A stretch of 64,000 bases of DNA from a virus: positions 1,498 through 65,497 of the IMG/VR virus record IMGVR_UViG_3300041964_000076, one strand, 5' to 3'. Below are positions 7,819 to 49,230 of this stretch, one piece after another. A program made the translations under genes and the position numbers. The notes under the pieces were generated by a model. It was not told where the DNA came from. It made no database searches and saw only the letters and a list, made by a program, of their open reading frames with translations. Numbering within the stretch: the stretch's first letter is position 1; the number at the start of each line of letters is the position of its first letter.

Positions 7819-7838
7819 GATGCAATTTTACTCTGGTG

Positions 7839-31696: not shown

Positions 31697-32064
31697 GCTA
31701 GTGAGGCAAGCTTGGTTGTGATTTGGTCAAAGCCTTCAGGTTTAAGGTGAGGCATCAAACTGTATACGGTTAAAGCCTTTTCATGCCGAGTAGCAATGTC
31801 GCTTACTACGTTGCTTAATGGGTTTCTGTTTAGCTTGGCTAGCGTTCTTTCTACATCTAGCTTGAACTCAGTAACGCGAGGCAAGTAGATTTTGTCGCCT
31901 GTCAATTCTGGATTGCCATGCCAACTTGTTCCTGTTAGTTCAACTGGCTTACCAATACTGCTGTCTGCAACAATTCCAGCATTCACCCCTGACATTATTT
32001 GCGCTGTCTTGAGATCAATCGTGCCTTCGTTCTGACTGTACAAACTTAAAATCGCTGCGTTCAT
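31693..32064 (-). CDS. Hypothetical protein
   Basis: ORF overlapping the next gene by ATGA. Confidence 0.4.
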   Translation of the reverse strand: MNAAILSLYSQNEGTIDLKTAQIMSGVNAGIVADSSIGKPVELTGTSWHGNPELTGDKIYLPRVTEFKLDVERTLAKLNRNPLSNVVSDIATRHEKALTVYSLMPHLKPEGFDQITTKLASLA

Positions 32065-32545
32065 CTCGGTGCCTCGTTTCTCTCTACCCTTCTAATGTAC
32101 ACCCATTAGAGTGGATTGGCAAGAGGGTGAGCGAAAAAAGTTGGAGTAGTGCGATCGCCCCAGCACAAAACGGCACGAGCGATCGTAAATCTTTCGCGCA
32201 ATCCCTAGCGTACAGGTCAAAATGGTAGTGTCGATCGCGGTTGACATATGCCAGGACTACCAGACACGACAGACGATCGCCTTAACCATCTGGGCAAACT
32301 GATGCACGAACAGGATGACGAGCAGATGGCACGCATCCAACGACTTGAGGAGCGTCAAGGCTTCCTTCTGAGCGCTGTGGCTCAATTGCAGAGGTATCTG
32401 CCTAAAGACATCATGCCAGTGCCAATATGTGACGTGGGAGAAGGGATAAGCGATGCACAAGCGATCGCGGCTCTACTGAACGCTGCTGACGTTGCAGGGC
32501 AGATTGAGCAAGGGAAAGGAACGGGCACTTATACAGGTGATCTCA

Positions 32546-32971
32546 ATGATTGAAGTTGAGCAAGCGCAAGTGGTAGTAGTGCGATCGCTGTTGGATCTGA
32601 ACCTGTTCGTTGCAGACTATGTGATGGGCTGGGACGATCGGTATTTTTTTGAGGAAAGACCAGGTATTCCGCATTACTGGGACCCTGACACGAAAACTTG
32701 CTACACATATAATCAATGGTCTCCGTCAGAAAGCATTGAAGACGCTTGGCAGGTTGTTGAAAAGTTAGAACACCTTACACCCGTTATTGAGGCGTTAACT
32801 CAGACAGAGCAACAATCAGCTAAATGGCGTTGTCTGTTTGCAAATATAAGCGAACTTGGACTGAACCACGGGTGGCATCTATCTGACAGTTCTACCGCAC
32901 CGATCGCCATCTGCCTCGCTGCCCTCAAAACCGTAGGCATAGAAGTGCAACTGGAGCTAAATGATGCCTGA
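32546..32971 (+). CDS. Phage ABA sandwich domain-like protein
   Basis: LNLFVADYVMGW...WSPSESIEDAWQVVEKL...APIAICLAALK. Confidence 0.7.
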   Translation: MIEVEQAQVVVVRSLLDLNLFVADYVMGWDDRYFFEERPGIPHYWDPDTKTCYTYNQWSPSESIEDAWQVVEKLEHLTPVIEALTQTEQQSAKWRCLFANISELGLNHGWHLSDSSTAPIAICLAALKTVGIEVQLELNDA

Positions 32972-33605
32972 ACCACGATTCCCACTGCCATACGAGCAAA
33001 TCAATAAACTTTCGTTTATTGTGAAGCAGCATCGGCAAAAGGCTGTTGAGGAGCTGGGTCAAACGAATTTCAGACTGGAACAATTACGTGGCGATATAAA
33101 TGCGATCGCCCAAAAAACCCGCGATAGGGTGGGTAGTCTGAAAGCGGTGGCAATCATAGCGATCGCTCTGTCCATCATCAATCTCGGTCTAATCATCTTC
33201 TGGAAGCGTTAAATGTCCAACATCACCCCAGAACACAGCCATAACGCTCGACCACTTGATGAGCAAATGGCAGCGCTGACCGATCGCGTGGATGGCGATA
33301 TGGCAGCAGTCTTTGAGCAGTTGGACGAACAGAGCAAAATGATTGTGGCACTCAAGGCTAAGATTCAAAACCTGGACGATCGCCGGGGCTGGGTGGATGA
33401 GATTGCCCTAATTCTCAACTGGGCAGAACGCAACCATAGATGGGTGTGGGGAGTTGTAGCGGCGGGGGCAGTAACAACGCTCTTGCTCAACATCTCGCAG
33501 GATGGCAAAGAAAAGCTAGTGGAACGATTGACCACAGTAGAAGCGATTACAGCACTGGCGATCGTTGCAACGGCTGGCGCAAAAACGGCATTAGATAAGA
33601 AATAG
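32961..33605 (+). CDS. Two coiled-coil, C-terminally membrane-anchored proteins (holin-like lysis candidates)
   Basis: ORFs 32961-33212 and 33213-33605 with TM segments upstream of the endolysin. Confidence 0.45.
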
Positions 33606-33680
33606 TGGTGAAAAATGGATAAGTTACTAGACGTTGTTTATTTCCAGTTAATCCGACCCGTCAAGATGGGCACATACCAA

Positions 33681-33905
33681 CTACTTCAAACCAAGATCAA
33701 AAATAGCTTTTGCTATTTCTCTAATTCTTCGCAGGCTAGCAGATTGATACCTTGTTGATTCATACCGCTGAATTTGTTGTTCTTTCATGCCCAGCTTTTC
33801 AGCGACATCTCTTTGCGTCAGTCCTAAGCGTTGCCTTTCCTCTATAAGCATTTCAGGTAGTTTATCAATCAAGTGATCAATAAATTGGGGGATCTGGTTT
33901 GGCAT
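33681..33905 (-). CDS. XRE HTH protein (HigA-like C-terminal domain)
   Basis: ERQRLGLTQRDVAEKLGMKEQQIQRYE. Confidence 0.8.
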   Translation of the reverse strand: MPNQIPQFIDHLIDKLPEMLIEERQRLGLTQRDVAEKLGMKEQQIQRYESTRYQSASLRRIREIAKAIFDLGLK

Positions 33906-33958
33906 AAAAACACAACAAAATAGTTGTATAATAGTATCATAGTTTTTGCAAACAGAGC

Positions 33959-34435
33959 ATGATACCTAAATTTAGTACGGCAGGCTGTATATACTCAAAA
34001 CACTGCCTTTCCAAGACTGGATACCCTGTTAAGACCTTTCAGCGTAAAGTTCAAAAAATTAGTCGTCTTGTTTTAGCAGAAAAACTCGGTAGACCGATAA
34101 AAGACGGAATGGTTGCTTGTCATACTTGTGATAACAGGGCTTGTGTGAATGCAGAGCATTTGTACGAAGGCACTCGAAAACAAAATATACATGATGCTAT
34201 GGAACGAGCAGGAATGCAGCAAGGCTCTAAAAACCATCAAGCAAAACTCAATGAAACGCTAGCCGTATTTGCGGCACACAGACTGCGAGAAGGAAAATCC
34301 GTTTTTGAAGTTGCGGATATGCTTAATGTTGCGCCTTCTACTATAAGTTCCATAAAATCTGGTCGAACATGGGCTAAACACACAGGTTTAAAAGAAGGGG
34401 ATTTGCCTGATAGACGACGTTTGCGCAGTCGTTAA
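33959..34435 (+). CDS. HNH homing endonuclease with C-terminal HTH
   Basis: ACHTCDNRACVNAEHLYEGTRKQNIHD. Confidence 0.88.
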   Translation: MIPKFSTAGCIYSKHCLSKTGYPVKTFQRKVQKISRLVLAEKLGRPIKDGMVACHTCDNRACVNAEHLYEGTRKQNIHDAMERAGMQQGSKNHQAKLNETLAVFAAHRLREGKSVFEVADMLNVAPSTISSIKSGRTWAKHTGLKEGDLPDRRRLRSR

Positions 34436-34515
34436 TTCAAAAGGTTGTACGGCGAATGATTTGATGATTAAGCTGGACATTAGTAAAACAAGTGCTTACA
34501 AGAAAATGAAAAAAT

Positions 34516-35136
34516 ATGTCTGACAAAATTCTCTCTGTCCCTTTCATGGTTCAAAACGATAACGATCTTTGGAGTGGTGTTCACGGCAGCGTTCAATGCT
34601 GCCCTACTGCTAACGCCATGCTAGCGGCGACCCTGGACAAGGATATGATACCGTTAGCGAAGAAGAACGGCTTTAGAGAGCCTGAGAGTTACTACAAGAG
34701 TAAGTTTCAACCATTGGGCTATAGTGCCGCAGACAGAGGCAACCACGACGCTCACACCAGAGTTTTAGAGTCAGCCTTCGGCATCAAATCACAATGGCGT
34801 ACTGACATCACTAGTAAAGACATCGTGCGATCGCTTGATGCTGACATCCCTATAGTGGTCGGCTTTGAGTATAAATATTCTGGGCATATATGCATTATTA
34901 CTGGCTACTACAGCAGCGAGGGTGGTGGTTTGTATGTCCATGACCCTTATGGACTCAGGGCAGGGTCGGACAACTATTACCACTACATCAACCCTGGTTA
35001 CGGTGATCAATCAGGCAAGCACGATCGCTACAGTTGGGGCTTGCTGAATCACGTTCTGTTTGAGCGTGGCACACCCAATAGAGGCGGCTGGGGTCGATGG
35101 GTTACGAGCGTAGCAGGGAAGCCCACAGGCTTGTAG
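34516..35136 (+). CDS. C39-like peptidase, probable endolysin
   Basis: QCCPTANAML (Cys), GHICIITGY (His), VHDPYG (Asp) papain-like triad. Confidence 0.78.
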   Translation: MSDKILSVPFMVQNDNDLWSGVHGSVQCCPTANAMLAATLDKDMIPLAKKNGFREPESYYKSKFQPLGYSAADRGNHDAHTRVLESAFGIKSQWRTDITSKDIVRSLDADIPIVVGFEYKYSGHICIITGYYSSEGGGLYVHDPYGLRAGSDNYYHYINPGYGDQSGKHDRYSWGLLNHVLFERGTPNRGGWGRWVTSVAGKPTGL

Positions 35137-35420
35137 AAATGGATCGCAACCCACTACCATCGCCCAAAGAAATCGCACTGAATGAAGTGGCAGGGTTGCC
35201 ACCTGAGTTGCAGGCGCACAGAGAAGCGATCGCCGCGATCGTTGAGAAGGTTGTACGCACAAGAGACTGGCAGACTAACGACATCCTTCAGCAGCATTTA
35301 GGTAATGTCAATTTTGCTGCCATTCAGTTGCGCGAGACGATTGAGAAGATGCTGCGATCGTAGGGGTTCAACCCGCCAGCGAAACCCGATCGCGCCCATC
35401 TTTTTGGTAAAATGGAATAT

Positions 35421-35448
35421 GCCCCCGCGTGCTGGAAACACCGAGGGC
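35421..35448 (+). promoter_or_regulatory. Leader hairpin upstream of the second HNH gene
   Basis: GCCC-CCG-CGTG/CAC-CG-A-GGGC stem just downstream of a TAAAAT -10-like box. Confidence 0.4.
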
Positions 35449-35481
35449 GTGGTCAACCTAACGGATTAAGAGAAGGTCAAC

Positions 35482-36190
35482 ATGACTAGGATATACAGAA
35501 AACCGACTGAATCGATCGGTGAAGTTTTTGGCAGCTAACAGTTTTAGGCATCGCAGGCAGAGATCACGCAGGGTTTGCGATCGCGGCTTGCCTTTGTGAA
35601 TGCGGTAAGAGGCACCAGACAAGGCTTAACAGCTTGAGAACGAATAAAGCTTTATCTTGCGGGTGTCTAGCAAGACGAAATCCATCTGCTAGTGACAAGA
35701 TTGTGACTCCGAATCATGGTTTTTCAGTAAAAGATCATTCGAGTCTGGAATATTTGACTTACATAAGCTGGAAAGCGCTTAGGCACAGATGTCAAAGATA
35801 GGCATTCAAATACAGAAGCATTATGGCTCTAGAGGCATTGAAGTCTGATTCCAGAGTGGAATAGCTTTCCTCATTTTTAGCTGACATGGGATTGCGCCCC
35901 AAGCAAAGCGCATCTGGAATCGATCGTGCTGATGTGAACGGAAATTACGAGCCTAGCAACTGCGACTGGGGCTACAGCGAAAGAGCAGGCGCCAGAACAA
36001 GCGGAACACGCGATGGCTCACCCTTTCAGGCAGAACGCGTTTGTCCTTAGCGCCGTGGGCTGAAGAATAGGTTTTCCAAGAGAAGTTCTTAAAGATAGGC
36101 TGGGTCGATTGGGCTGGAGTGTTGAAAGAGCTTTGACAGAGCCAGTCATGAAACAAAACAGGAAACGCATAACGCCCCCTAGTTTTACTC
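35482..36190 (+). CDS. HNH homing endonuclease (frameshifted, end approximate)
   Basis: CLCECGK...LSCGCL; SFLADMGLRP...IDRADVNGNYEPSNC; GWSVERALTEP. Confidence 0.75.
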
Positions 36191-37985
36191 TGTTGGGGAA
36201 CTACCACTTGGTTCTTGCCCTGCCTTTTTGCCTGCTCATAGCCGCATCAGCAGGCAGCCATCAGTTTCAGCTAGTGTCCTGCCACTCGTTGGATACATTG
36301 CAACCCCGATCGATGCGTCACCTGCCTAAGCATGGAGCCTCCGTAAGCCAGGTTGATTGCTGAGATTGCCTGTCGCAGTGCCTCAGCTTTGGCGATCGCG
36401 CTTGCCTCTGTGCAATCAACCAAAAGCACCACAATTTCATCGCCCCCTTTGCGTACTGGAACGTCCCCGTTACGGCAGTTATCTAGAAGAACACGCCCGA
36501 TATTCTGAAGCACAAAATCGCCAGCGGCATCGGATACTTCCTTGTTATACTGCCCGAAGCCGTCAGCATCAACGAATAAAAGCGCTAGCTGATAGCTATT
36601 GCGATCAGCTTTAGCGACTTCACGCGGGAACGTTTCGGCTAGATAAATATTGTTGAAAAGTCCAGTCAGATGATCACGAACTAGCATTTCCTGAGCTGCT
36701 TTGCGATCGCTCAGTGCGCTCAACGCCTGCCCTAACTGTTGCCCCACAATCTCAGCAATCTCGATTTCGACATTGGTCAAGGGACGATCGCGCCTCAAGT
36801 GCAACACGCCTAGAGTCTGTGTCTCGCGTCCGTAGAGAACAGAGGCACGCATAGATGGGAACCGCTCACAGGTTTGTGTAGATGTTCGCAGACCATTTCA
36901 GTTTCTTGATCCTCGCAGTAATGCACTTTCGCTTCTTTGAGCGATCGGCATTCATTCGGCATGAATCCCGCTTTGCTGCCTGCATCACTGCCCCAACTAA
37001 AGCGCCGCTCTGCGTACGATCGTGAGTTATCAATCAGAAAAGTTCGCCTGCCAGATAGGGGAAGAGTTTGCGACCCGCAACCCGCACAACATCGCCTGCC
37101 TCTTGGTAGGAGTCGCAAAGGTTGAGGCGTACTGATAACTCTGAGATCAAGTTGAGGTTCAAAACCATCAACGAGAGTCGGGTTTCTTTCTCGCGTAACT
37201 TTTCGTTGGCAGCAATCAATTTGCCTTGGGCGATTTGTTGATCGGTCACATCCAGACTAAAACCGCCGATGCATAACTCGTTGGTGTGTGGATCTGTAAA
37301 CCGAAACTTGCGGGTGTAATATTCTCGCGGCTGCCCTGTGGCATCTGGCACTACCTCAATAAATTCTGCCTCGCCGTTTTCCGCCACTAGGCGATCGTTC
37401 TGCAAGATTCTCGCTGCCTGTTCCTCATCTTTGAGAAAGTTGGTGTCATTCAGCCCAATCACTGACGATGCGGGTCGTGCGATCGCACGTTCACACGCCG
37501 GTTGAGCCAGATCATGGTCGAGTCACTAGCCCGCTTGCAGTAGATGGGGTAGGGCGATGAATCAATGAATAGATCACGAATGAGCTGATGCTGCTCAAGC
37601 CCTGCCTGATTCGCCTGAGATGATTGAACGAGCGCGATCGCCTGTGCTGCGAAGGGGGCAACCAGAGTGCTGCTACTAGAGAGACGATCGCGGTTACTGC
37701 CTTAGCTCGCTACAGACAGGCTGTACAGGGGCAAGAAGACGGTAATGACCTCGGCAATGTGCGAGATGCCACAGCAGACGATAAAGGCGCAAAACAGCCC
37801 AATGATTTGATAGAAGCGAAGGGGAACGCCTGCGAGTGAAACAGTTGCCGTGAGTAGTACAGGAGTGAGAGCGGGATAGCGAAGTAGGCGATCGCAATCA
37901 GCACGTCACTGCCGACTAACGACCAAAGTAGATAGGGATTCCAGTTGAAGCAATAACCGTGAGGCACCCAGGAGAAATGATCCAT
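36180..37985 (-). CDS. Diguanylate cyclase-like sensor: ethylene-binding TM domain, PAS, GAF, GGDEF (frames joined)
   Basis: PHGYCFNW...SDVLIAIAYFAIP; FIVCCGISH (37759-37776); KAVTAIVS; PAS/PAC LDVTDQQ; GAF; DHLTGLFN, RNGD I-site, GGDEI. Confidence 0.85.
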
Positions 37986-38723
37986 TAGCAACCAGCCGTG
38001 GCAGCACCGTACAAATGCCCTTGCACTAACAGTTGTAAGTTTGGAAAATGCCTTGCCAGAGCGATCGCCCTCGCTTCAATTGCTCCCGATTCCAGATGCT
38101 CTAGCACAATCGGTATGTCACGCCGATGAGCGATCGCCATTGCCCCAAACACAACGCATTCGCGCCAATGGTCGCGGCCATCAGTCGCACGATCGAGCCG
38201 TCAACTTCAAGAAATCAGGCTCGATCGCCAAGATCGCTGGAATGTTGGCATAACCTACGCCAAAGTCGTCAATGCCGATTGGTAAGCGTAGCTCACGCAG
38301 GGCACTCAAAACCTGCGTCGAAGGTAACATTAGTGCCTCTGTTTCGGTCACTTCACAGTATAAAAGCCGTGGATTGATGCCGCTCTTGTTGAGTTGCTCC
38401 GTCATGAAAGACGGAAACTGCAAGTCATTCAAACTTTGCCCACTCAGGTTGATTGCGTGCGGTATAGACGAGTGCTGCAAACGCTCCAGAGTGCCAACTA
38501 CAGCAGCGCGATCGATCGCCTTTAGCTGCTCAGGAGTTACGTCATTGATGAATCTTGCCGCCGGGATTATCTCGCCAGACGGCTCCCTCAGTCTGACTAA
38601 AACCTCAAACACGTAAGGGATTTCAACCCCAATTTTGAAAATGGGCTGACAGTGAAAGATCAGACTACCAGAGTCGATCGCCTGATCAATGCGCGATCGC
38701 CATTGCATGGATGTGTTCGGCAC
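37985..38723 (-). CDS. Stand-alone EAL c-di-GMP phosphodiesterase (C-terminus across frameshifts)
   Basis: QPI, EVLVR, INLS, EVTE, IDDFGVGY, K-DG, VLEHLE, VQGHLY; its TAA overlaps the DGC ATG. Confidence 0.9.
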
Positions 38724-38829
38724 AGTGACTAGCGTTCAGGATAAGTCCATCTTAGTCCCTGTGATGGAAGGGGCTGATGTTATGGGGCGATCGACTTCCT
38801 TTCTGTCTCACTTTATTTCTGCTGAAACC

Positions 38830-38859
38830 TTGACAAGGTTATAATCCTTTAGCTATAGT
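38830..38859 (+). promoter_or_regulatory. Sigma70-type promoter
   Basis: TTGACA-18 nt-TATAGT. Confidence 0.6.
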
Positions 38860-38886
38860 GGGTTCAACCACCTAGAGGGCAGACAA

Positions 38887-39183
38887 ATGGATTTAGCTAA
38901 ATTTTGCACAGAAGAAAACAAAAGTTTGACCAAGCGTGAAACTGTTTGGCGTGTCCCTTCAGAATACAGCACTGAAATTGAAGCGTACGCACTGTCTCTT
39001 GGAGTTCGCAGATCGGTATCTGGAGAGTTGTTTGTAGCTTCCAGTAAAACAAATCAAAATTTGGGAATTAAAAGCCACGGACGCAACAACGATAAGTATT
39101 TTGTTTTTGCTCCTTACACAAAATCTCAATCAAGTCAGGTGTTACATGCACTTGCTCAAGCTGCAATTGAAGCTAGCAACTAA
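38887..39183 (+). CDS. Hypothetical protein
   Basis: ORF with GAGG RBS after the promoter. Confidence 0.5.
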   Translation: MDLAKFCTEENKSLTKRETVWRVPSEYSTEIEAYALSLGVRRSVSGELFVASSKTNQNLGIKSHGRNNDKYFVFAPYTKSQSSQVLHALAQAAIEASN

Positions 39184-39190
39184 ATAAACA

Positions 39191-39241
39191 AAACCCGCGA
39201 TCGCATTCTCAAGAACCACCTAGAGTCGCGATCGCGGGTTT
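39191..39241 (+). terminator. HIP1-containing hairpin, terminator-like
   Basis: AAACCCGCGATCGC...GCGATCGCGGGTTT. Confidence 0.5.
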
Positions 39242-39245
39242 CTTT

Positions 39246-39455
39246 ATGGAGCATAACACGATGCCTAACACCAGAAAAACCGATCGCGACGAAGTGAAGC
39301 GTAACGCAGGCTTAAGCCTTACTGGGAAGCGAATTGACCAATTAGACAGTGATGCTAAGAAATACGGCTACAAATCGCGTGCGGCATTGCTAGAAGCATT
39401 CTTTGAGCAGCAGTACCCCGCATTCCTCTATCAGTTGATGCTCAACAAGGATTGA
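39246..39455 (+). CDS. Ribbon-helix-helix (CopG-like) regulator
   Basis: LSLT...IDQLDSDAKKYGYKSRAALLE. Confidence 0.6.
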   Translation: MEHNTMPNTRKTDRDEVKRNAGLSLTGKRIDQLDSDAKKYGYKSRAALLEAFFEQQYPAFLYQLMLNKD

Positions 39456-40121
39456 AAGATTGAAGGGGCGATCGCCCTTCTCACAAATCAAACTGTCCAA
39501 ACGTTGCACACTGCCTAGAATAGAAGCAGTGGGGTGTAGCCATTGGCACAATTGTTTGGTGATAACGTCCAAAATGGAAACTCCTAAACCCGAAAAGAAA
39601 GAGCAGTGCTTAGAGGACTCCTTGGCAGACGAAAAGCAGAAAGAGTTGCTTCTGCGTTCGGGACAGTTTTTATTAGTCACTGGAGCGCCGAATATCGCGG
39701 CGAGATCCCTGCCACGCCTGGAGTCGTGCATAACTTATTTGCATGTCCAATCAAACCAGCAGCAGCCAAAATCCTGTTGGCAGAAGGATTTAAGCCTATT
39801 GGAGGCGCATTACCAACCCACACGATTAAGTGCAATACGGCGCTTCTTCGTGACTCGTACAATCCTCGTGGTCTCTTCGATCTCTTTTTTGATCTCTCGG
39901 ACTTTCCGCCGAATGATGGACTTTGGATCACGATCGAAACGTGCAAAAGATTGAAAAGCGACTGTTTACCTGCACTGAAAAAGCGTTGCTGATTCGGTGC
40001 AGATCTGAAAACGAGTTCCGTGGTGCTGTGATAACGAGACGATCGACATTGCTTGGCTGGATGATGGCAGCCGTTGCTTGGCACTGACGATCGCAGAGTA
40101 TCGCAAAAAGGTCGGCATCCA

Positions 40122-40577
40122 ATGAAGCAAACCGCAGGCTTCACCTTGATAGAGCAGTTGTCTGTGATCCTCATCATCACAATTTTGGCAGCGATCGCTC
40201 TACCTGCATTGTTCAATCAAGTCCGTAAAGCGCAGTCAAAACAGGCGGATGCCGACATTTCAGCAATGAAGACAGAAATCATTGAATGGTATCAGAAGAA
40301 CGATCGCTTCCCACATGATGTGCAACCCAATGTCGCTCCAGAAAACAACAGCGTACCCAGTTTTAAGGTGCAACCAGATACGCCTAACGATAGCCCCTAT
40401 GACTACGATCACCACTGCTTGCAAAAGCCAGAGGATGATTTTAAGACACGGTTTGTACGGGTCGTGTGGTTTGGCTGGGACAAGAAGCGGCAACACAACC
40501 ACGAGAACACGACAATTAAAGATGTTGGGGATGATGTTGTGATTACTGTGTCGGAATCTGAACAGTGCCCTCCGTGA
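40122..40577 (+). CDS. Type IV pilin/pseudopilin (class III signal peptide)
   Basis: MKQTAG|FTLIEQLSVILIITILAAIALP: PilD cleavage site, E5, hydrophobic helix; two C-terminal Cys. Confidence 0.9.
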   Translation: MKQTAGFTLIEQLSVILIITILAAIALPALFNQVRKAQSKQADADISAMKTEIIEWYQKNDRFPHDVQPNVAPENNSVPSFKVQPDTPNDSPYDYDHHCLQKPEDDFKTRFVRVVWFGWDKKRQHNHENTTIKDVGDDVVITVSESEQCPP

Positions 40578-41073
40578 TTGAAGGCTAGAATTGAGGAAGT
40601 ACAAGCATTCCATCACAGGGTTCTAGCGTTTACAGCTTAGAAATTGGAGCGACAACCGCCCGAAGACGATGGCATCAAAATTCATTCCAGGGATGCCAGT
40701 GCGTCCTTTGAATCCTTTCAAGATTCCGCCTTGGTTCGGTTGGTATAACGATCAGTGGTGTTTTTACATCTCTACTGAAGCGCAAGCGCCTGACAGAATT
40801 GCTATACGCCCAAGCATCTTTTTCAAAGATCAGATAGTTATTCACTTGCAAGTCTGCCGCTACGCCCAAGGAGTCTTCCAAAACTTCTTTGCTTGTTGGC
40901 AGTGGGAAGAAGACTTTGAACTGGATAACGATTTGGAAGACAATCAGCAAGCCCTCAGTACTAGCAAGTCCTCAGTATCCGCATTTCTACCACCCTCAAA
41001 ACTCAGGTAATCTCTGCCTGTGTACTCTCTACCTCTAAAGACATAGTAGAGGCATCAGCTTGAGGGGCATGGT

Positions 41074-41199
41074 ATGAAAGGATTTTTGAGTCTGGTGTTG
41101 GTCGGAGCGATGATGCTGCAAGCCCGTGCAGGTGCCCCAGGTCGTCGTATTGGGGGTGGCACCAGGATGCAGGAGGTTAGTCATGTTGACCAGTATTGA
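41074..41199 (+). CDS. 41-aa putative secreted peptide
   Basis: MKGFLSLVLVGAMMLQARA signal-like segment followed by GAPGRRIGGGTR; below the ORF-track cutoff. Confidence 0.5.
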   Translation: MKGFLSLVLVGAMMLQARAGAPGRRIGGGTRMQEVSHVDQY

Positions 41200-41361
41200 T
41201 TATGTAGCACTCGACCCAGCATTGAGTCCGATCAGCATCTATTAGTTAGGCATCAACGGGGTAGTAGCAAAGGCGATCGACGATGCAACGCCATACCCGA
41301 CCGCAGTGGAAGTGCGAACCGTGTTAGAGAATGTTTGAGGGGCATGGATTGTGGTTGGAGC

Positions 41362-41934
41362 TTAACGGCGCTTTGGTGGCTTGAAGAAGTCTTTCTTTTT
41401 AATCTTCACCATGCGCCCGTCTGGATGGTGCCACACGATGCCTTCAATCTCTCGATCGTTCAAGTATTCTTTAAGCCCTTCAAAATCTGTAGGTACAGCT
41501 TCTTTGATGATCACGCCGTCATGTGGCACTAGCACATGGCTAACAAACTTTTCAGGGTTGCCTTGCACCTTGGGTCCGCACAGTTCATAAGTACCGTTCT
41601 TGAGCGGTTGACTGAAAGCATCAACACCGCGATCGTATGCCTCTCTAAACCATTGATCCTCTTTTCCATCGCCAACGGGTAGCCATCCTGGATGATGCCC
41701 TGTCACTGGATCAGGTTCTTGAGCAGGTTCAAAACCTTCAGGTGGTGTCTTACCTGCTTTTGCGTCGTACCGCTTATACAGTTTACCGTCTCGCATCATG
41801 CAACAAGTGCCATCAAACTTGCGAGTAGCAACGCCTTCGCCTGCCTGTACCCATTCACTGCCTTCTACGACTTCGTTGCAAACTAGGCGATCGCCGTCAT
41901 AGTTACGCTGAAACAAAGAAATGATTTTTTTCAT
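41362..41934 (-). CDS. RNA ligase, DUF5565/RLIG1-like nucleotidyltransferase
   Basis: ATRKFDGT (motif I KxDG), TYELCGP, IEGIVW, MVKIKKKDF; own RBS AGGAG before ATG 41934. Confidence 0.75.
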   Translation of the reverse strand: MKKIISLFQRNYDGDRLVCNEVVEGSEWVQAGEGVATRKFDGTCCMMRDGKLYKRYDAKAGKTPPEGFEPAQEPDPVTGHHPGWLPVGDGKEDQWFREAYDRGVDAFSQPLKNGTYELCGPKVQGNPEKFVSHVLVPHDGVIIKEAVPTDFEGLKEYLNDREIEGIVWHHPDGRMVKIKKKDFFKPPKRR

Positions 41935-41944
41935 AATTCTCCTA

Positions 41945-42363
41945 CCTTTTAGAAACACGTTTGACCGTCCTGGCTTTGCGTTTGCGTGCCGGACGCTTAG
42001 AGACTTTTTTGCGGGTATCAACGCCGATCGCAGCCTCTTCACAAACCCTGCCTGATTCCGATTTCCTAACTCTGGGTTCTTAGCATTCCATACCCAATTT
42101 TGTGGGGCGTGCGCCTCTTTGTGATGCTTGAGGCAGAGGGGGAAGCAGTCGATTAAGGGGCGTTCACTACCTGCAATGCTTACCCACTTCCCACCGTCCC
42201 AGACACCGTATCTCACATGATGCACTTGTCTAGCCTTGCATCGGCACAACGTACACTTGCCACCCGTCGCCTGAAATGTGGCAGTGCGTATTGAGTGCCA
42301 ATTAGGGGCGTAACGATGGGGGAAGGCTTGTTTGTGCAAGGCGGTGCGATCGCTGCAACTCAT
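41945..42363 (-). CDS. HNH endonuclease (CxxC...HH...CxxxH)
   Basis: KCTLC...QVHHVRY...PLCLKHHKEAH. Confidence 0.75.
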
Positions 42364-42389
42364 TCAACGTTAACGCAAGCCAACTTGGC

Positions 42390-42782
42390 TTATTCATCTT
42401 CCGTTTTGTCTGCTGCCCCAAAAAAGACATAATCGATCGCCTGTTTAATTAAGCGATCGCCCCTCCTTCTTTCTTCCTGAAGCAAATAGTTAAGGTCGCC
42501 ATCTTCGTCAAACGTGGCTGCTAAAATACCAGCTTTTGCTAGCGCAACCTTTAAACCGTAATCCCATCCAGAATTGCCAAAAGGTCGTTTGCCGCTAAAG
42601 CCCTCTCCTTCAGCCCATAACGTAGTCAGCAAGTCGTGCAAGTAGGATCGCACAGTGCCACTGCCATGCTCGTATTCAAGTGGCGCTGCTAACACCGCTT
42701 CAACCTCAGTCATTGATTCTGCTGATACAACAGGTGGGGCTTTGATGTAACGATCGCCATTGATAATAACTTCGAGTGCCAT
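42390..42782 (-). CDS. Phage hypothetical protein
   Basis: FSGKRPFGNSGW motif; RBS present. Confidence 0.5.
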   Translation of the reverse strand: MALEVIINGDRYIKAPPVVSAESMTEVEAVLAAPLEYEHGSGTVRSYLHDLLTTLWAEGEGFSGKRPFGNSGWDYGLKVALAKAGILAATFDEDGDLNYLLQEERRRGDRLIKQAIDYVFFGAADKTEDE

Positions 42783-42966
42783 GATTTTTACCTTGTAGTG
42801 GTTAACCGCGTTTCTTGATGTATTTGTCGATCGCCTCCATCAATACATCCTTTTCACTTTTGGGCTTTGGCTTGGGCTTATCCAGTAGCAGGCAGAGGGC
42901 GATAGTAACAGCGACGATGCTGACTGTAATGGTTCCTGCTGGCACTAGAAAGCAAGTCCACTGGAG

Positions 42967-43380
42967 TTACACAAACAGTAAGCGAAAAGCCATGTTAACC
43001 ACGTTTACCCAGCTTGGTTCTGTGTTTGCGGGTAGCACGCTTGCGGGCTTTCTTACGGGTGCTAGCGAGGCTTGCAACCGCTCCACAAAGGCGGGTTGAT
43101 TGTGATTACCTAACGCTGGATTCTGCTTGTCCCAAACCCAATTCTGTGGTGCATGGGCGAGAGTGTGGCAAGAGTTGCAGAGCGGAAAGACATCAACTAA
43201 GGGGTGCTCCTTGCCAGCAATCGACTGATAGCGCTTACCGTCCCAAAGCCCATAGCGAGCGTGATGTACTTCTTTAGCTCTACCCGCACAAAGGCAGCAG
43301 CAACCGCCCGTTAATTGCAGTGTCTGCTGTCTGATGCTGCGCCAGTTGGCAGCGTAACGGTGGGGGAAAGATTGACTCAT
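42967..43380 (-). CDS. HNH endonuclease, paralogue of 41945-42363
   Basis: CCLC...EVHHARY...PLCNSCHTLAH. Confidence 0.78.
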   Translation of the reverse strand: MSQSFPHRYAANWRSIRQQTLQLTGGCCCLCAGRAKEVHHARYGLWDGKRYQSIAGKEHPLVDVFPLCNSCHTLAHAPQNWVWDKQNPALGNHNQPAFVERLQASLAPVRKPASVLPANTEPSWVNVVNMAFRLLFV

Positions 43381-44788
43381 TTCGCCCTCGTCCAGACGGT
43401 CAGACCTTTGCTGTTGTAGACCGCGATCGCTCGTTCTCTGGCACGCTGAAAGAGGCGACTGGTTGAACCGCGTGGGTAACTCCAGAAAGCCTCCACAAAT
43501 GCGGTGGGTGACTTGATGCCGTGGTCTAAGGCAAGGTCTACGATCGCGTGCGCTAGTGCCTCCTCTGATACCCCGTCAATTTGCTCAAATTCGGAGTCCT
43601 CCAAATTGTCAGCACTAGCACTGTAATCTTCAAAGTCCTCGTCCCAAGGGTCTTCTGGGTCGTGCTGAGTCGAATCGGTCAAAGCGTCCGTGCTGCCATC
43701 GTGCTGCGTTGGTGCTAGTCCCAGCCCGGTTCCCAGCGATCGGCTGAACAAATAGAAGCCCATCGGGGCAAGCGTCGTCAGGATCAGGGTTTCATTGAAC
43801 TCTTGCCCACGCAAGCCGTCAAGCTGCTCCTGATAGTCCTTTGCCTTTTTGCCTTTAATCTGGTACTGAATGAGATCCTCGATCGAGTCGTAGGCACCTT
43901 TACGCCCCAACGCCAGGAAGGAGACGCTATCTAGCACGCCCGTATTCCAGCCCCAGTCCTCTACGCGAGAAGTGTGGGAGCTGGCACGGAGGTAGATCTT
44001 CTCAGCCGCCCCTTGCAGCAGAATCCGCTTCGTCTCCCGGCTGAATTGAACGGCTTTCTCTCTGCCCTTTGTCTCCCCTGAGTCATCGTCAGAACAGGTA
44101 TCACGGACGAGGTTGAACTCGTCAATGAAGAGGCTGATGGTTTCGCCCTTGCCGCCATCTTGCCGTCGCCTGAGTTCTGCCAGCAGACGATCGAGCAACC
44201 CAAAAAGATCAGCCACTTTCTCAGGGCTGTTGCAATGGGTATAGGGCACGTTTGCCGCTTGGCAGAAAGCCCGCAAATCTTTGTCGCCCTTGCCGTCGAT
44301 CGCATAGACCGTATGCCCTGCCTGGAGCGCGTAAGCGATGGTTTCGATGAAGAGGGTTGTCTTCCCTGATCTCGTCTTTGATACCAGTGCTATTTGCCCG
44401 TCGAGCGCTGCGATTTCTGCCGCTAGATTCCGATGTGGGGGCAGCGCTGCCACTAGAGCAGGAGCATCTTGCGGCTCAATGTTGTACTGGATCTCTTTGG
44501 CTGTCAGCCGATCGTATAAAACCTTTTGCATTGCCGAGAGGTAGACCGAATCAATATCGTTTTTCAGTCTGCGAGTAGCTTTCAACGTGCGAACAGCAGG
44601 GGCAGAGACAAACTGTACTGCCCACCAGCCCGCGCCAAACAGCGCTGTACGTGATGGGTCGGCGCTGCCCAGAAAGAGTGAGGCGGTGAGCGTTGCCCAA
44701 CCCAAAAAGCCAGCTTGCCAGATGACCTTCTGGGAGTGGTCGATCGTGGCTTGCTGGCTTTGATGGGTGACAGGATGAAGTCTTGCAC
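43377..44788 (-). CDS. Membrane-anchored FtsK/HerA/TraD-superfamily P-loop ATPase
   Basis: SKTRSGKTT Walker A, AIDGKG, LFIDEFN Walker B; N-terminal TM segments; start frameshifted from GTG 44788. Confidence 0.75.
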
Positions 44789-44792
44789 AGGT

Positions 44793-45409
44793 TAGCCCTT
44801 GAGCAGTTGGATAAGTTCTTGGTGGTAGGCAAGGCAGACCCCGATCGCAAGCCAGAACAGCCGATAGCCCACAAAGAAGCGGCTTTCAGGGAATCTTCTG
44901 CGCGGCATAGGCACTGCACAGAAAGCCTGCGATCAGCATGAGGGCGATCGGGATGGCTAGCTGTGGGACTACAGGCACTAGCAGCCGTAGGACGCTAATC
45001 AGGGTGGCAGAGCCGAGGATGTAGGACAGCACTTGTAGATTCAATTCGGCTAGCGTGGCAGGGAGTGCTAGGTCTTGCAGCCACTCCCATTTTGTCTCGG
45101 TCGCCTGGTTAATCCGGTTGGTGTCAAGCTTGATGGCTTCAGGCTTTAGCCCTGTATTGACGACGATATTAGGGCTCGCCTGGGGCTTGCGTCTGCACTT
45201 GCTGCTTGCTCACTCATCATTGCCCTCCTCGGTGGGTTCTAAACTTGCCCACCAATGGCAACCACCAAACATAACGAGCGTGAAGACGGTCGGGACAAAT
45301 GCGCCTGTAGCGATGCTGACACCACAGAAGATTAAGTTGATCCAGCCAAGCCCTTGGAGGGTAGGGCTGTCAATTCTGATGTATAGGGTACGTCGGAGGC
45401 ATGGTTGTT
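44793..45409 (-). CDS. Two small membrane proteins (missed or split in the ORF track)
   Basis: Translated segments LQVLSYILGSATLISVLRLLVPVVPQLAIPIALMLIAGF and LGWINLIFCGVSIATGAFVPTVFTLVMF. Confidence 0.45.
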
Positions 45410-46132
45410 ACGGGGGCTAGAAATGGCTGAATTGATGTAAAGGCTAAGGAAGAAGACAGGGACGGCAATACAAGTGAAGAGCAAGCCAATGCTGACGCGC
45501 TCCCAGGTCTGGCGCGAGATAGTGGGTAAGCTCCGCCCCTCGCTCGTTTGCACGGTGTAGTTAATCGTGCCTTGGTTGATAATCACGGAGCCACCTACAC
45601 GCTTCGGCATACCTACCCGCAGTCCTTGAAAGCCCAGCAAATTAGGGTTAAACGGCTGATCTACCCGCGCCAACTCGCCGCCGCTGTTATCGTCAACGTG
45701 CCAGTCAGAAGCCTGGAGTGGGGAGGCTTTCGGCTCCAATCGTTGCAACTCACCACCATCATCGACTCGCGCCATCCGGTAGGTAGTGTCAACGGGGGTA
45801 ACTGCTTGAGGTTGAGCAATGACGATCGCGCCAGCGTCAGCATTGTCAGCGCGGTGAGAGCTGACCAAACGGGCAAACTCCAAGGCTTTCGGGGTGTTGA
45901 GCTTTTGAGCGATCGCCTGAATGCCTGACTGGGTGTAGCAAATGCGCTTTGAGTTGTTCTGGGCTGGGTCGCGATACTCTAGCCAATCTTGCCCCTGCTG
46001 GAGATTGGAGCGAAAGCCCTTCATTTTGTCGCCAGAGGTGCCTAAGCCAAGAGCGGCATAGGTTTGAGCGAGAAGCCAGGGGTATCCTTTAGCGGTGAAA
46101 GCTTGCTTGAGGGGGTGTTGCGTTGCGTTCAT
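45332..46132 (-). CDS. ORF6N/Bro-like N-terminal DNA-binding domain plus C-terminal TM helix
   Basis: LQQGQDW...ICYTQSGIQAIAQKLNTPKA; VSIGLLFTCIAVPVFFLSL. Confidence 0.45.
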   Translation of the reverse strand: MNATQHPLKQAFTAKGYPWLLAQTYAALGLGTSGDKMKGFRSNLQQGQDWLEYRDPAQNNSKRICYTQSGIQAIAQKLNTPKALEFARLVSSHRADNADAGAIVIAQPQAVTPVDTTYRMARVDDGGELQRLEPKASPLQASDWHVDDNSGGELARVDQPFNPNLLGFQGLRVGMPKRVGGSVIINQGTINYTVQTSEGRSLPTISRQTWERVSIGLLFTCIAVPVFFLSLYINSAISSPRNNHASDVPYTSELTALPSKGLAGST

Positions 46133-46195
46133 GGTGACAGCGGGGGTAGAGGGTGGAAAGGAGGAGTGCGATCGCCCCTCCAACAACGAGGAGGA

Positions 46196-46728
46196 TTAGG
46201 ACTTTCCCAGGTCTTGCAATGCCGCTAAGGACTGCTGCAAGGCATCGGTTTCGCTGGTCTGAGCAGTGTCAATCATGTGAGTCTGCTGCTGATAGAGCCG
46301 CTTTTCGAGATGCAATTCGGCTGCTTTACGGGCGATCTTCTCCTTCGCCTGTCGCGTCTGATTAAGCTTGGCTTCGCGCCGCTGGATGTCTTGCTGCATG
46401 GCGCTTGTGACCATATCTGCCGCTTCAAAAATTGATTAGCAAGCGTCAGTGGATCTTCAAGCTGGATTGACTCATCCGATCGCAAGCTGTCGAGCGAAAA
46501 GGTTTGCGGCAGTTGGGGGTTGCCCATCACGATCTGATGGTTGCCTACTTCCACCGTGATTTCAGGGGTTTCGACGGTTGGCTCCAGGTCAAACTCATGC
46601 AGCAAAGTATTGAGATCGACGGGCGTGAGTCCGTCTGTCGTCTCAAGATTTAGTTCCTGGCAGCGGCGATAGACGGTGGACTTAGGAAGATTGTGGTCTT
46701 TGCAAAACTTGGTGAGGGATGTCTTCAT
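46196..46728 (-). CDS. HTH plus coiled-coil protein (frameshifted)
   Basis: SLTKFCKDHNLPKSTVYRRCQEL HTH; Q/K/E-rich coiled-coil C-terminus. Confidence 0.55.
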
Positions 46729-46750
46729 GATGGTTTTGGTGAAAGGCTTG

Positions 46751-46848
46751 CTGGAACTGGGTTGGAACGAACTGGAACGGGTTGGAACACGATTCTCTCG
46801 TTCCACGTTGAGGGAAGTCAGTTCCCATCGCGTTCCAAGGGTGTTCCA
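46751..46848. repeat. Helically phased inverted array of GGAAC/GTTCC motifs
   Basis: GGAAC at 46753, 46764, 46774, 46784; GTTCC at 46800, 46821, 46832, 46843. Confidence 0.8.
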
Positions 46849-46960
46849 CGCATGAGATCAAGCTAGCACATATAACCCCATATATCACCCCCTATCTACA
46901 CTTAATTTGCTTGATTGTGCTTAAGATGGCAGTGACGAGCCGGATAATATAGGGGGATAT

Positions 46961-47214
46961 ATGGCAGGAGAATCCAACGTGGTAGCTAAACCCGTAAAGA
47001 AGTTGATTGAAACCAGGGTCGGGACTGCTGATGATGACGCAGCTCGTAAACTGGCAGAAAGAAAGGGATTGCGATCGCTGATGTTTACAGCCAAGCAATC
47101 GAACGTGGTTTGCCAATCCTGATCGAAGAAGACAACAAGCTGAATTGGTGGCACGCATCATCAGCCAAGGCTGAGATCAGGAACTTGCTAGACTCCTTGC
47201 CCGAAGAAAGCTAG
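46961..47214 (+). CDS. Ribbon-helix-helix-like regulator (frameshifted)
   Basis: IETRVGTADDDAARKLAERKG, then ADVYSQAIERGL; imperfect inverted repeat 46878-46895/46949-46964 overlaps its start. Confidence 0.45.
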
Positions 47215-47271
47215 CGGCGGCGATCGCACAGCTTGAAGCCCTTAAAACCTCTTAACGGGTTCACATAGCAA

Positions 47272-47305
47272 AACCCCGGCGATCGCGCCATAAATTGCCG
47301 GGGTT
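47272..47305. terminator. Hairpin between convergent genes
   Basis: AACCCCGGC...GCCGGGGTT. Confidence 0.5.
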
Positions 47306-47776
47306 CCCTTATTCATTTTTCTCCGCACTGATTAGAATGGCAAAAAACGTGGAGGCTTGACCGATGCAGCAAATGTACTGGAAAAGACAGTCCGATAACT
47401 CACTCATCCTCTACGCCCAGACAGATCGCGGCTGGCAACCGTGCCCACAGCAAGGACGATCGCGCTCTCATACTGCCGTTGACCACATAGCCCACGCGAT
47501 CGCCCTTGCTGATGCCGATCGCTTCAGCGGGTAGCGCTTTAAGGGTTGTCATGTCTTGCCTTCTTTCTACTTTTATCAGCCTCAAGTCTTGCCTCAAACT
47601 CAGCGTAATCAGATCGTGCCAGCGTTTTGAGCGCTACCAACCCATCGATCGCGGCTTGCAGGGCTATTGCCACATCTTTCACTTCATGCGGGGAGTAGCG
47701 CCAGGTGCGAGATCGAGTTGAGATTGCAAGCGATCGACTAACTTTTCTTGGCTTTTAATTTTGTCTTCTATCGTGA

Positions 47777-48367
47777 TCATGGCTTCACCAACACAGCGCG
47801 AGTGTAATCAGTCTCACAAAGTTTCATGCCAGCATTGGCAGCGTAAAAAGCATCAATTGCCTGCTGCAACGCTTCAACACCTTTCATCTCAGAACAATTC
47901 TCTTCCCCTACTTGCTCATACCAGTGCTCTGTAAAAGCATCAGTAGTCAGCTTTTCAGGCTCAACCAGATTCACGCACCAAAGATAAAGGGATGGTTCAA
48001 CCTCGTTGTCTTCGCACTCTTCTAAATAGTCTTCGATTTCGTGGTAAATCTTCTCGCCATCAGACTCGATCACCGCTTCGCAGTCTTTTGGATCAACGAT
48101 CGCTGCCTTTTCAAACCTTTCTCGCTCGTATTTAGCCCAAGCTTCTTCGTCTCTCTCCCACGTCTTGCTTTCAAGCTCCGATAACAAGACTTGAAACTTG
48201 ACCACAGAAGAAGCAGCCGTAACATCGCTGGCGACAGCGATCGTCGCCATCTCACCATCAAGACTAAGCACTTTGGCATCCAATCCCGCCTTGTACGGCA
48301 ACTCAGGGCGGACTTTTACCCACCACGTCACCCATTCATCAGTTTTGATTTCTGCGCGTTTTCTCAT
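47777..48367 (-). CDS. Acidic hypothetical protein
   Basis: In-frame ATG 48367, E/D-rich. Confidence 0.45.
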   Translation of the reverse strand: MRKRAEIKTDEWVTWWVKVRPELPYKAGLDAKVLSLDGEMATIAVASDVTAASSVVKFQVLLSELESKTWERDEEAWAKYERERFEKAAIVDPKDCEAVIESDGEKIYHEIEDYLEECEDNEVEPSLYLWCVNLVEPEKLTTDAFTEHWYEQVGEENCSEMKGVEALQQAIDAFYAANAGMKLCETDYTRAVLVKP

Positions 48368-48902
48368 GACCTCGAATCCTCCATCGCTTTTTGTCGTGCT
48401 GCCAATGCGTCTAGCTCGATAGTTAGCCGTGAGAGCGTAGACTGCCAGCGATCGTCCTTCATCAACCCATCTAACAGCCCTGCCTTGACAGGCCAGGGTA
48501 AATCGCCAGAGAGCAACCGCAGACATTCGAGAGCGTGATGGGTGCCGATCGCTTCGGCTGTGGATAGTTGAAGGTTAATCATAGGTTGCTCCTGCTAGTA
48601 TTTGCCCAATATCGTCCAAAGCGTCGTCACTTAGTTTCTCCCACTTCACGGTTTTGAGTTGTGCCAGCAATTGTTGTCGATTCAATGCCGCTTCTAACTC
48701 TGGAGTAGGTTTAAGCATTTGACGATGAGGGGCATAACTTTCTGCGCCTATTTCTCGCCCGTTCGCCTTAAACCGATGCTGACTCTTCAGCGTGATTTGA
48801 CCTGTGGGGCTAACGCTTTTAACAGACGTAGCAATTAACGTTGTTGTACCGTACTGCTGGCAACGCAAAATGACGCGATCGCCTTTGCTCCATGTGGTTG
48901 TT

Positions 48903-49148
48903 TCATTCATCACTAGCATCCTCACTTTTTCCCAACTCTCGCTGCAACTGAGTATCAAAATGCTCATCGATCCAGCGAATAGATCTTTCAATAAACTCGG
49001 AACGTGTAACCCCACATTTAACCGCTAAAGCGTCTAGCCGTTCTGACGCAGTATCAGTAAGCAAAAACTGCTTAGGCTTTTTAGTTTCTCCATAGGAGCC
49101 AGCTTTGGCGCGGTTGTCTTTAGGCATATCAATTAAATCCATAGCCAA
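48903..49148 (-). CDS. Ribbon-helix-helix (CopG-like) regulator
   Basis: QFLLTDTASERLDALAVKCGVTRSEFIER. Confidence 0.75.
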   Translation of the reverse strand: MAMDLIDMPKDNRAKAGSYGETKKPKQFLLTDTASERLDALAVKCGVTRSEFIERSIRWIDEHFDTQLQRELGKSEDASDE

Positions 49149-49201
49149 CCTTTTTAAACTACCCCTTTATCGTACTCCTTCAATATACTGAGGTCAACAT
49201 A

Positions 49202-49230
49202 TTGACGTATGGATATGGGGATGACATACT
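49202..49230 (+). promoter_or_regulatory. Sigma70-type promoter, divergent from the CopG-like gene
   Basis: TTGACG-17 nt-CATACT. Confidence 0.5.

Follow-up and report, generated by a model that had tools for sequence, protein, structure and literature searches.

A predicted type IV pilin of a soil-crust cyanophage, from a deep and apparently phage-borne lineage recurrently linked to c-di-GMP genes

Type IV pilins encoded by phages are not without precedent. The F10-like prophages of Pseudomonas aeruginosa specify P-FimU, which is reported to be incorporated into the type IV pili of the host and to block tip-binding phages (Sztanko et al., Cell Rep 2026, PMC12952977). P-PilA of Xylella fastidiosa prophages and the PilA-like proteins of virulent phages are reported as predicted, singly encoded pilins, for which incorporation or a block of assembly was proposed (PMC12952977); given their ~50% identity to host PilA, the Xylella proteins would be recent host copies. 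With P-FimU, P-PilA and a PHROG family named 'pilin' on record, phage pilins can be regarded as a kind already known. Here we analyze a prepilin gene located at positions 40122-40577 of a 64,000-nucleotide stretch (hereafter the window) of IMG/VR virus record IMGVR_UViG_3300041964_000076 (window at G000:C1:1498-65497; record length 107,563 bp, CheckV completeness 91%), that is, on a phage of ~108 kb whose hosts are filamentous cyanobacteria of soil crust. Its product, P0001, is by its sequence a member of a deep, largely phage-borne lineage, and we read it as probably a tool for rewiring host pili.

The locus resembles that of P-FimU, so far as the latter is described, in having a single pilin gene, a temperate or apparently temperate phage without pilus machinery and high diversity among phages, which makes P-FimU the best functional analogue. 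They differ in that P-FimU is a FimU/GspH-type core minor pilin at the pilus tip, while P0001 is small and major-pilin/GspG-like, comes from another host phylum, belongs to a deep phage lineage of its own and is linked to genes for the turnover of c-di-GMP (cyclic dimeric guanosine monophosphate). No such c-di-GMP link is mentioned in the abstract or the phage-genome results section of PMC12952977. Unlike P-PilA, P0001 has a globular domain without counterpart among the pilins of a Stenomitos metagenome-assembled genome (MAG), a likely host, and the cellular proteins nearest to it fall into a clade of their own. Tip and Aqs1 we take to be further phage inhibitors of type IV pili that are not pilins. 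PlzR, another non-pilin inhibitor, is described as acting in superinfection exclusion (PMC11461919). All three are cytoplasmic proteins that bind PilB or PilZ, whereas P0001 is itself a pilin and control here would pass through c-di-GMP enzymes.

The pilin gene, which contains the only prepilin motif in the whole record, is laid out as follows.

40122-40577, plus strand: prepilin gene, 151 amino acids plus TGA stop, encoding P0001 (open reading frame (ORF), TIGR02532, PF07963, AlphaFold2 model)
40122-40139, plus strand: leader peptide MKQTAG, basic, with Gly(-1) at its end as the predicted prepilin-peptidase cleavage site (sequence)
40140-40292, plus strand: mature N-terminal helix with Phe1 and Glu5 (G/FTLIE), a hydrophobic alpha1N with Pro22 and an amphipathic alpha1C
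40293-40574, plus strand: globular domain, residues 58-151, with three beta-strands and the motifs YP.D, DYD, G..(K/N)R and GDD (alignments A1, A3, A4)
40416-40418 and 40566-40568, plus strand: Cys99 and Cys149 (sequence)

The class III signal, the hydrophobic helix and the short globular domain with two cysteines claimed by the first-pass annotation all hold up. The signal is intact (MKQTAG/FTLIE), the GFxxxE prepilin domain TIGR02532 scores 19.0 bits against a cut-off of 16.3, and the cleavage region is kept as G[FY][ST]L.E in the alignments of homologues, whose N-termini also back the start at ATG 40122 and not at TTG 40074. PF07963 reaches 20.0 bits by hmmscan, below its cut-off of 21.2, and 22.7 bits, above it, in the six-frame search of the record; PHROG 3433 ('pilin') matches the N-terminus with E 3.9e-6. 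More specific pilin profiles stay short of their thresholds: the GspG profile TIGR01710 gives 45.1 bits against 88.85 (E 1e-11) over residues 6-69 only, PF08334 13.9 against 21, the GspH/FimU profile TIGR01708 21.1 against 80, and HpsB is a weak match (E 0.016). The alpha1C helix bears a GspG-like ...DI..MK..I..Y..N.R(F/Y)P motif, and P0001 and P0003 have Thr in place of the Gly14 of alpha1N. The globular domain matched no Pfam family in any of the 45 family members scanned. Its cysteines are highly conserved, both being invariant among 11 close homologues; in the 45-sequence alignment the C-terminal one is kept in 43 of 45 sequences and exactly two are present in 36 of 45, with the partner at position 99 (12 sequences) or at ~110 (28 sequences), on neighbouring strands. 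This pattern fits a predicted disulfide that would tie the C-terminus to the sheet. No sigma-70-like site was found and terminator-like sites occurred at chance level, a search that is uninformative for a cyanophage. RNA data sets were looked up for the region and for the gene, and none was listed.

The structure was modelled with AlphaFold2 from the 45-sequence alignment A3 (an alignment of 11 homologues gave a predicted local distance difference test score, pLDDT, of 49.9 and was unusable). The model has a pLDDT of 94.8 and a predicted template modelling score of 0.83, with a helix of 52 residues (9-60) and strands at 93-101, 108-116 and 139-148. In a structure search against Protein Data Bank (PDB) representatives the top 20 rows were nearly all type IV pilins or pseudopilins with Z 4.8-6.8, values that are moderate and usual for the pilin fold, in a homogeneous list. 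The best matches were Clostridioides difficile PilA1 (Z 6.8), Vibrio cholerae EpsG (Z 6.7, root-mean-square deviation 2.6 over 87 residues) and XcpV/W (Z 6.4), with PulG, Thermus thermophilus PilA4 and PilE also among them; FimU (4ipu) reached a Z of only 3.6, under the major-pilin matches. Matches in the AlphaFold-DB clusters and Swiss-Prot were prepilins, GspG, major T4a pilins and the non-core minor pilin PilE. Foldseek against the PDB gave no match at E <= 0.001, though its top rows were pilins, and BFVD gave no convincing viral structural match. On the modelled fold, then, P0001 appears to be a small major-pilin/GspG-like pilin and not a core minor pilin of the FimU/GspH, PilV, PilW or PilX type, a placement that follows from these structural matches and from the GspG and GspH profiles, which cover only the N-terminal third to half and lie far under their cut-offs. 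The likeness to GspG comes from the best N-terminal profile, the similar helix motif and the overall fold (EpsG). Against an identity with GspG stand the low scores, the lack of Gsp partners in the record and a C-terminal domain that the GspG model does not recognise.

Full-length homologues of the pilin were found at E 1e-80 to 1e-26, the close ones being few (46-81% identity). An exhaustive profile search returned 189 proteins at E < 1e-10, ~35 of which are full-length relatives of ~150 amino acids. A giant protein of 2,027 amino acids, P0186, matches the pilin profile C-terminally (positions 89-142) in eight separate stretches, and the beta-sheet part of the domain may thus also occur there as a tandem repeat. 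Tblastn of the pilin against 50,697 GenBank phage records and megablast of positions 30000-50000 against GenBank phages gave no match. IMG/VR scans with P0043, P0046 and P0044 were likewise empty, and the scan with alignment A1 returned only locus L005; with the same alignment, metagenome contigs gave no match and genome contigs only the one binned in the Stenomitos MAG.

The relation of the pilin to cellular pilins is that of a separate lineage. The Stenomitos MAG encodes Peptidase_A24 and six other prepilins, the latter matching the phage pilin over residues 2-64 only. The alpha1N of the phage protein resembles the PilA-type N-terminus of Stenomitos (...GILxAIALPxxLNQ..., Pro22 kept), unlike that of three clustered minor pilins. 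Used as a single query the globular domain had no match in 300 other cyanobacterial species genomes, and its profile (A4) found matches in 16 of 401, in single copy in 15 and in two copies in one. These chromosomal relatives are orphans at varied loci, next to genes for a methyltransferase, deacetylase, polyprenyl synthetase, TRAP transporter, PBP or ABC transporter, with no pilus operon and no phage genes alongside; among them are prepilins of Cyanobacterium aponinum and Halothece sp. PCC 7418, with globular-domain homology at E 1e-16 to 1e-27. A maximum-likelihood tree of 62 sequences has a branch (support 91/87) that separates the 10 rows of phage or mobile genetic element (MGE) context from the 18 of chromosomal context; a single change suffices in 100% of bootstrap trees, and none of 500 label shuffles scored so low. 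The tree is unrooted, 34 of its rows have no known context, three of the 'phage' labels are presumptive and near copies inflate the shuffle test. P0001 has the motifs YP.D, DYD/E, G.N..R and GDD and the C-terminal Cys, and falls within the 27-row side that holds all 10 phage/MGE rows. By its sequence, therefore, the pilin was not copied recently from host PilA1 or from a minor pilin. Its lineage is deep and carried largely by phages, and is, on the same tree, sister to a sporadic chromosomal orphan pilin. Cyanobacteria also have 'auxiliary pilins' (e.g., Synechocystis PilA4), which are small, major-pilin-like, encoded outside minor-pilin operons and probably dispensable for assembly (Schuergers et al., PLoS Genet 2026, PMC13759059). 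P0001 is likened to these by description only, whereas the orphan chromosomal prepilins are its true globular-domain homologues; the latter are single genes amid housekeeping genes, with the phage genes across the tree branch.

Within the lineage the gene appears in phages that have little else in common. P0003 is encoded on a 97.6 kb contig that has a C39 peptidase gene and the ORF downstream of the pilin in common with the window phage, and P0002, P0009 and P0010 lie on short contigs with homologues of the window phage's neighbouring genes. P0004, 66% identical to P0001, is on the 111.5 kb contig binned in the Stenomitos MAG, which is itself a phage contig (portal and tail-fibre matches); we rejected it as a relative of the window phage, only the pilin being common to both. 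IMG/VR provirus UViG_2910170622 (L005) encodes a pilin identical to P0005 of Phormidium sp. FACHB-592 and Stenomitos frigidus AS-A4; the provirus has ~15 accessory or replication genes and no structural gene in common with the window phage. A pilin 66% identical without any other common gene, and a provirus without common structural genes, indicate that the pilin moves between otherwise unrelated phages of related hosts. A terminase of the Stenomitos MAG (G001:C287:534-1691, 48% identical to the window TerL) is on a different contig from the pilin, so the MAG bin seems to include two or more distinct phage-like elements.

Distant members (25-40% identity) are likewise in phage or mobile-element contexts. 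In L017, an 83 kb contig with ribonucleotide reductase, dUTPase, ThyX and tail genes, the pilin gene is directly upstream of GpJ-like tail genes; L020 is a contig with Gp80 and an M15 peptidase, L021 a replication-module contig with KilA-N, single-stranded DNA-binding protein and methylase genes, and L019 and L022, also distant members, are contigs whose phage nature is weakly indicated. In another phage context, L004, the pilin gene overlaps a gene for an M15_3 protein, followed by one for a GH19+M23 protein. A single conserved partner gene immediately 5' of the pilin in L017, L020, L021 and L022 was considered and dropped, the N- and C-terminal ends of the encoded proteins being dissimilar by eye. 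The class II ribonucleotide reductase gene of L017 (L017:457-4251) has a weak intein-splicing match.

The most conspicuous feature of these contexts is the recurrence of c-di-GMP genes. Type IV pili of cyanobacteria drive motility, phototaxis, aggregation and natural competence, and c-di-GMP controls them. Two such genes are found in the window, 1.4-3.9 kb upstream of the pilin and on the opposite strand.

37985-38723, minus strand: EAL-domain gene of the c-di-GMP phosphodiesterase type, split in the record (PF00563, E 7.5e-27 on 38181-38723)
36271-37985, minus strand: GGDEF gene with an ETR1_N-type sensor part, fragmented in the record (PF00990, E 6.4e-24 on 36271-36852)

The C-terminal piece of the split EAL gene is at 37985-38152. 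Collinear tblastn pieces of the GGDEF gene match a 620-amino-acid ETR1_N+GGDEF protein of L019; the ETR1_N label comes from Pfam matches on the L019 and L022 proteins and was carried to the window gene by homology. Genes of the EAL, ETR1_N-GGDEF or HD type were located no more than 8 kb from the pilin in 6 of the 10 phage/MGE contexts (the window, L005, L015, L019, L020 and L022), and on the phage side of the tree these six occur in both deep branches. In L005 an EAL gene lies 1.2-1.9 kb upstream of the pilin on the same strand, in L015 a GGDEF gene is at the contig end, in L020 an EAL gene comes directly after the pilin, and in L022 an ETR1_N+GGDEF gene, a gene for an HD_5/HD protein and the pilin are all within 3.7 kb. 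The clearest arrangement is that of L019 (L019:5264-8480), an operon of EAL (297 amino acids), ETR1_N+GGDEF (620 amino acids) and pilin genes with overlapping stops and starts. This trio is homologous to the three genes of the window and appears, from sequence comparison, to be the intact, collinear form of what is scattered there. The operon also adjoins a giant ORF of >2,751 amino acids. The EAL genes that adjoin the pilin in L005, L019 and L020 are homologous. The 107.6 kb record has no EAL locus besides that of the window, and both this record (G000) and the provirus genome G002 have a single c-di-GMP locus in ~108 kb, beside the pilin in both; the Stenomitos phage contig has none. Around the chromosomal relatives a GGDEF gene was found 3-5 kb away in 2 of 16 loci, which is unremarkable for GGDEF-rich cyanobacteria. 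In Synechocystis, c-di-GMP is reported to regulate minor-pilin operons inversely (10.1101/2020.12.15.422378), and the ethylene receptor SynEtr1 is reported to affect phototaxis and the cell surface (PMC6682694, PMC6508509). Competence pili and motility pili are reported to be primed by two distinct minor-pilin sets (PMC13759059). In light of these published roles the gene linkage points at the pilus system, and its recurrence supports a pilus- or motility-directed role for the pilin.

The gene also bears the marks of selection and of replacement by other alleles. Five nucleotide sequences were compared, giving proportions of synonymous differences (pS) of 0.64-0.82, which are saturated, and of nonsynonymous differences (pN) of 0.12-0.30 (pN/pS 0.17-0.37); such low pN at saturated synonymous sites indicates strong purifying selection. 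All pilin homologues are intact. A non-functional passenger is excluded by this selection together with the deep conservation, and the full-length homologues, the pN/pS and an independent metagenome contig that spans 40278-41002 with substitutions only and no indels show that the ORF is not a chance one. We also aligned contigs from four biocrust DNA runs (two studies) to positions 39400-41100. In all four runs there are contigs that match the gene upstream of the pilin as far as 40130, where, nine bases inside the pilin gene, they switch to sequence coding for SDKGFSLIEL, the N-terminal residues of the P0008-type allele (~48% identical); they rejoin the window at 40658 or 40972. A similar picture comes from L062, where the pilin is only 46% identical against 96% for the protein of the downstream ORF, with a nucleotide identity of 82% from 40658 on. 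It follows from the biocrust contigs and L062 that the pilin is a swapped, highly divergent cassette between better conserved flanks, with an allele ~46-50% identical in co-occurring strains, and this divergence relative to the flanks fits an arms-race locus such as one of superinfection exclusion.

The two flanking genes have no recognised family.

39606-40125, plus strand: upstream gene, broken by two single-base deletions in the record (homologues, other assemblies)
40669-41010, plus strand: downstream ORF, 113 amino acids, without signal peptide (homologues)

Neither had a Pfam or PHROG match. An intact homologue of the upstream gene (174 amino acids) is found at L005:5509-6033, and others also precede the pilin in L061, L062 and L015. 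At two places, after 39957 and after 40017, all four other assemblies contain one base more, and the frameshifts must therefore be errors or lesions of this record. Read through them, the gene ends ...GIQ-TGA at 40123-40125, with its stop overlapping the pilin start (ATGA), which implies, from the sequence, that the two genes are translationally coupled. A non-coding RNA at 39460-40110, where conservation is seen in several frames, was rejected, Rfam being empty both at gathering thresholds and at E 1; the conservation is due to the protein gene broken by the two indels. The downstream ORF is 42-50% identical in L002, L005 and L061, and upstream gene, pilin and downstream ORF make up a three-gene block in at least four contexts. 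HNH-type homing endonuclease genes are present around the pilin locus in L062 (877-1764), in L005 (~7000-7990) and in the window (41362-42363, and 42967-43380 on the minus strand), one of the window genes being fused to an RLIG1-like RNA ligase. These endonucleases may drive local cassette swapping. In the provirus the conserved block is closely preceded, at L005:4140-5351, by an IS605 OrfB/TnpB-type gene (OrfB_IS605 plus Cas12f1-like TNB domain).

That the gene is phage-encoded, and that no other pilus genes accompany it in the window, had been noted in the first-pass annotation; both points stand, and the second extends to the whole record. Apart from a Dda-like helicase, also encoded in the window, the phage features are these.

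7839-9155, in the window: terminase large subunit
18214-21300, in the window: tape measure
G000:C1:73782-74177, minus strand, outside the window: serine recombinase domain (PF07508, 32 bits)

A six-frame profile search of the 107,563 bp found no second pilin, Peptidase_A24 (PilD) was not found anywhere in the record, and the only match to an assembly ATPase of a pilus or secretion system was a T2SSE-type one of 12 bits, to a P-loop inside the helicase. No tyrosine integrase was found in the record. The serine recombinase domain and the classification of the related record G002 as 'provirus' suggest a temperate lifestyle for the window phage.

Our preferred reading, held with moderate confidence, is that host PilD cuts the prepilin and that its mature form is built into the type IV pili of the host as a major-like (auxiliary) subunit, within a c-di-GMP module directed at the pilus. 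As the phage has no machinery of its own, every later step would depend on the host. The prepilin would insert into the cytoplasmic membrane, host PilD would cleave it after Gly6 and methylate Phe1, and the host type IV pilus machine would extract the mature protein into filaments via its PilA-like alpha1N, so that the phage-specified globular domain, held by the putative C-terminal disulfide, would be displayed on or in the pilus. Meanwhile the partner c-di-GMP turnover genes (EAL, ETR1_N-sensor GGDEF, HD-type) would reset the messenger that controls pilus output in cyanobacteria. The altered pili of the lysogen or infected cell would most likely have changed binding, excluding pilus-dependent competitors, and/or bring changes in motility, aggregation or DNA uptake. 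For PilD processing and incorporation, which had been proposed from the DNA at first sight, the prerequisites are now in hand, namely the intact signal, the phage without a peptidase, the Peptidase_A24 of the likely host and the PilA-like alpha1N; the two events themselves we infer. The further proposal of superinfection exclusion or motility control has gained the c-di-GMP linkage and the divergence of the pilin against its flanks, the effects being still presumed. The swapping of alleles and the spread among phages fit phage-phage competition for a pilus receptor, by analogy with the FimU of P. aeruginosa prophages, and the c-di-GMP linkage agrees with a control of motility, aggregation or competence; both outcomes may hold. 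A speculative extension, which we regard as rather unlikely, is that phage pilin, EAL and ETR1_N-GGDEF form one signal-to-pilus circuit in which the ethylene-receptor-type domain would sense an external cue, host c-di-GMP would be reset and an own filament subunit supplied. The host machine would then build a pilus specified by the phage, its surface or function new, and the movement, aggregation or DNA uptake of soil-crust filaments would be steered to the advantage of the phage, beyond the masking of a receptor.

Several observations weigh against the incorporated, pilus-directed subunit that we prefer. No c-di-GMP gene was found around the pilin in 4 of the 10 phage contexts (L002, L004, L017 and L021), the sample of contexts is small and non-random, and the phage origin of L019 and L022 comes from weak PHROG matches. 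In most close-clade pairs the first 35 codons have a pN of 0.24-0.39 against 0.08-0.29 in the globular part; such a faster N-terminus is the reverse of classical major pilins and may mean that the globular domain has a fixed partner and is not a variable surface. The peptidoglycan hydrolase genes near the pilin in L004 and L020 and the adjoining tail genes in L017 would fit a role in lysis or in the virion, and that pili serve as receptors for phages of these hosts is presumed.

The same signal and fold would serve equally for a dominant-negative 'poison' pilin, processed by PilD and then jamming or capping assembly, or titrating PilD or the platform, with loss of pili, receptor, motility and competence. 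Such a possibility is raised for truncated phage PilA proteins in the P-FimU paper (PMC12952977), and it would agree with the Gly14 to Thr change of P0001 and P0003, with a globular domain more conserved than alpha1N and with a partner EAL that could lower piliation further. We nevertheless consider it unlikely, since a full globular domain and cysteine pattern kept over deep divergence would be needless for a mere blocker, the chromosomal sister genes are normal single-copy host genes, and swapped divergent alleles fit a displayed surface better than an internal plug. The GspG likeness opens another option, a secretion pseudopilus in which P0001 would act as a piston with the host pilus machine to export phage or host proteins or polysaccharide, like type II secretion or the hormogonium polysaccharide system. 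The best profile of the N-terminal half (TIGR01710), the presence of EpsG, PulG and XcpV/W among the top structure matches, the annotation of relatives as 'type II secretion system protein' and the HpsB match all point in this direction. This option seems to us quite improbable, as the GspG and GspH scores fall far under their cut-offs, the GspG match ends at residue 69, PF08334 fails its threshold as well, no other secretion component was found in the 107.6 kb record and the names of the relatives are automatic annotation.

Lastly, the pilin-type signal could be only an anchor for a periplasmic membrane protein acting in lysis or in the virion, as the M15_3 overlap and the GH19+M23 gene of L004, the M15 peptidase near the L020 pilin and the GpJ-like tail genes of L017 might suggest. 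We think this very improbable. Gly-1, Phe+1 and Glu+5 are kept at 25-30% identity, which argues for processing by PilD and assembly dependent on Glu5; in the window, L005, L015, L061 and L062 no lysis or structural genes adjoin the pilin, and contexts that vary among phages are what is expected of a moron.

Overall, what appears to be new here is a deep cyanophage-borne pilin lineage, its exchange among unrelated phages and its cassette-like allele replacement in natural populations, as well as the recurrent coupling with EAL, ETR1_N-GGDEF and HD genes, operon form included. Literature searches on cyanophage pilins and on c-di-GMP in cyanophages returned no paper describing these features in its title or abstract. 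The predictions are testable, as Phormidium sp. FACHB-592 and Stenomitos frigidus AS-A4 carry a related provirus pilin and L019 provides the three-gene operon form, and biocrust, with its swapped alleles, is a natural setting in which to study how phages compete at a pilus locus. If our preferred reading is true, the replacement of a host pilus component by a phage would extend from Pseudomonas to another phylum and to another pilin class, and cyanophages would manipulate the surface behaviour of their hosts, beyond metabolism.

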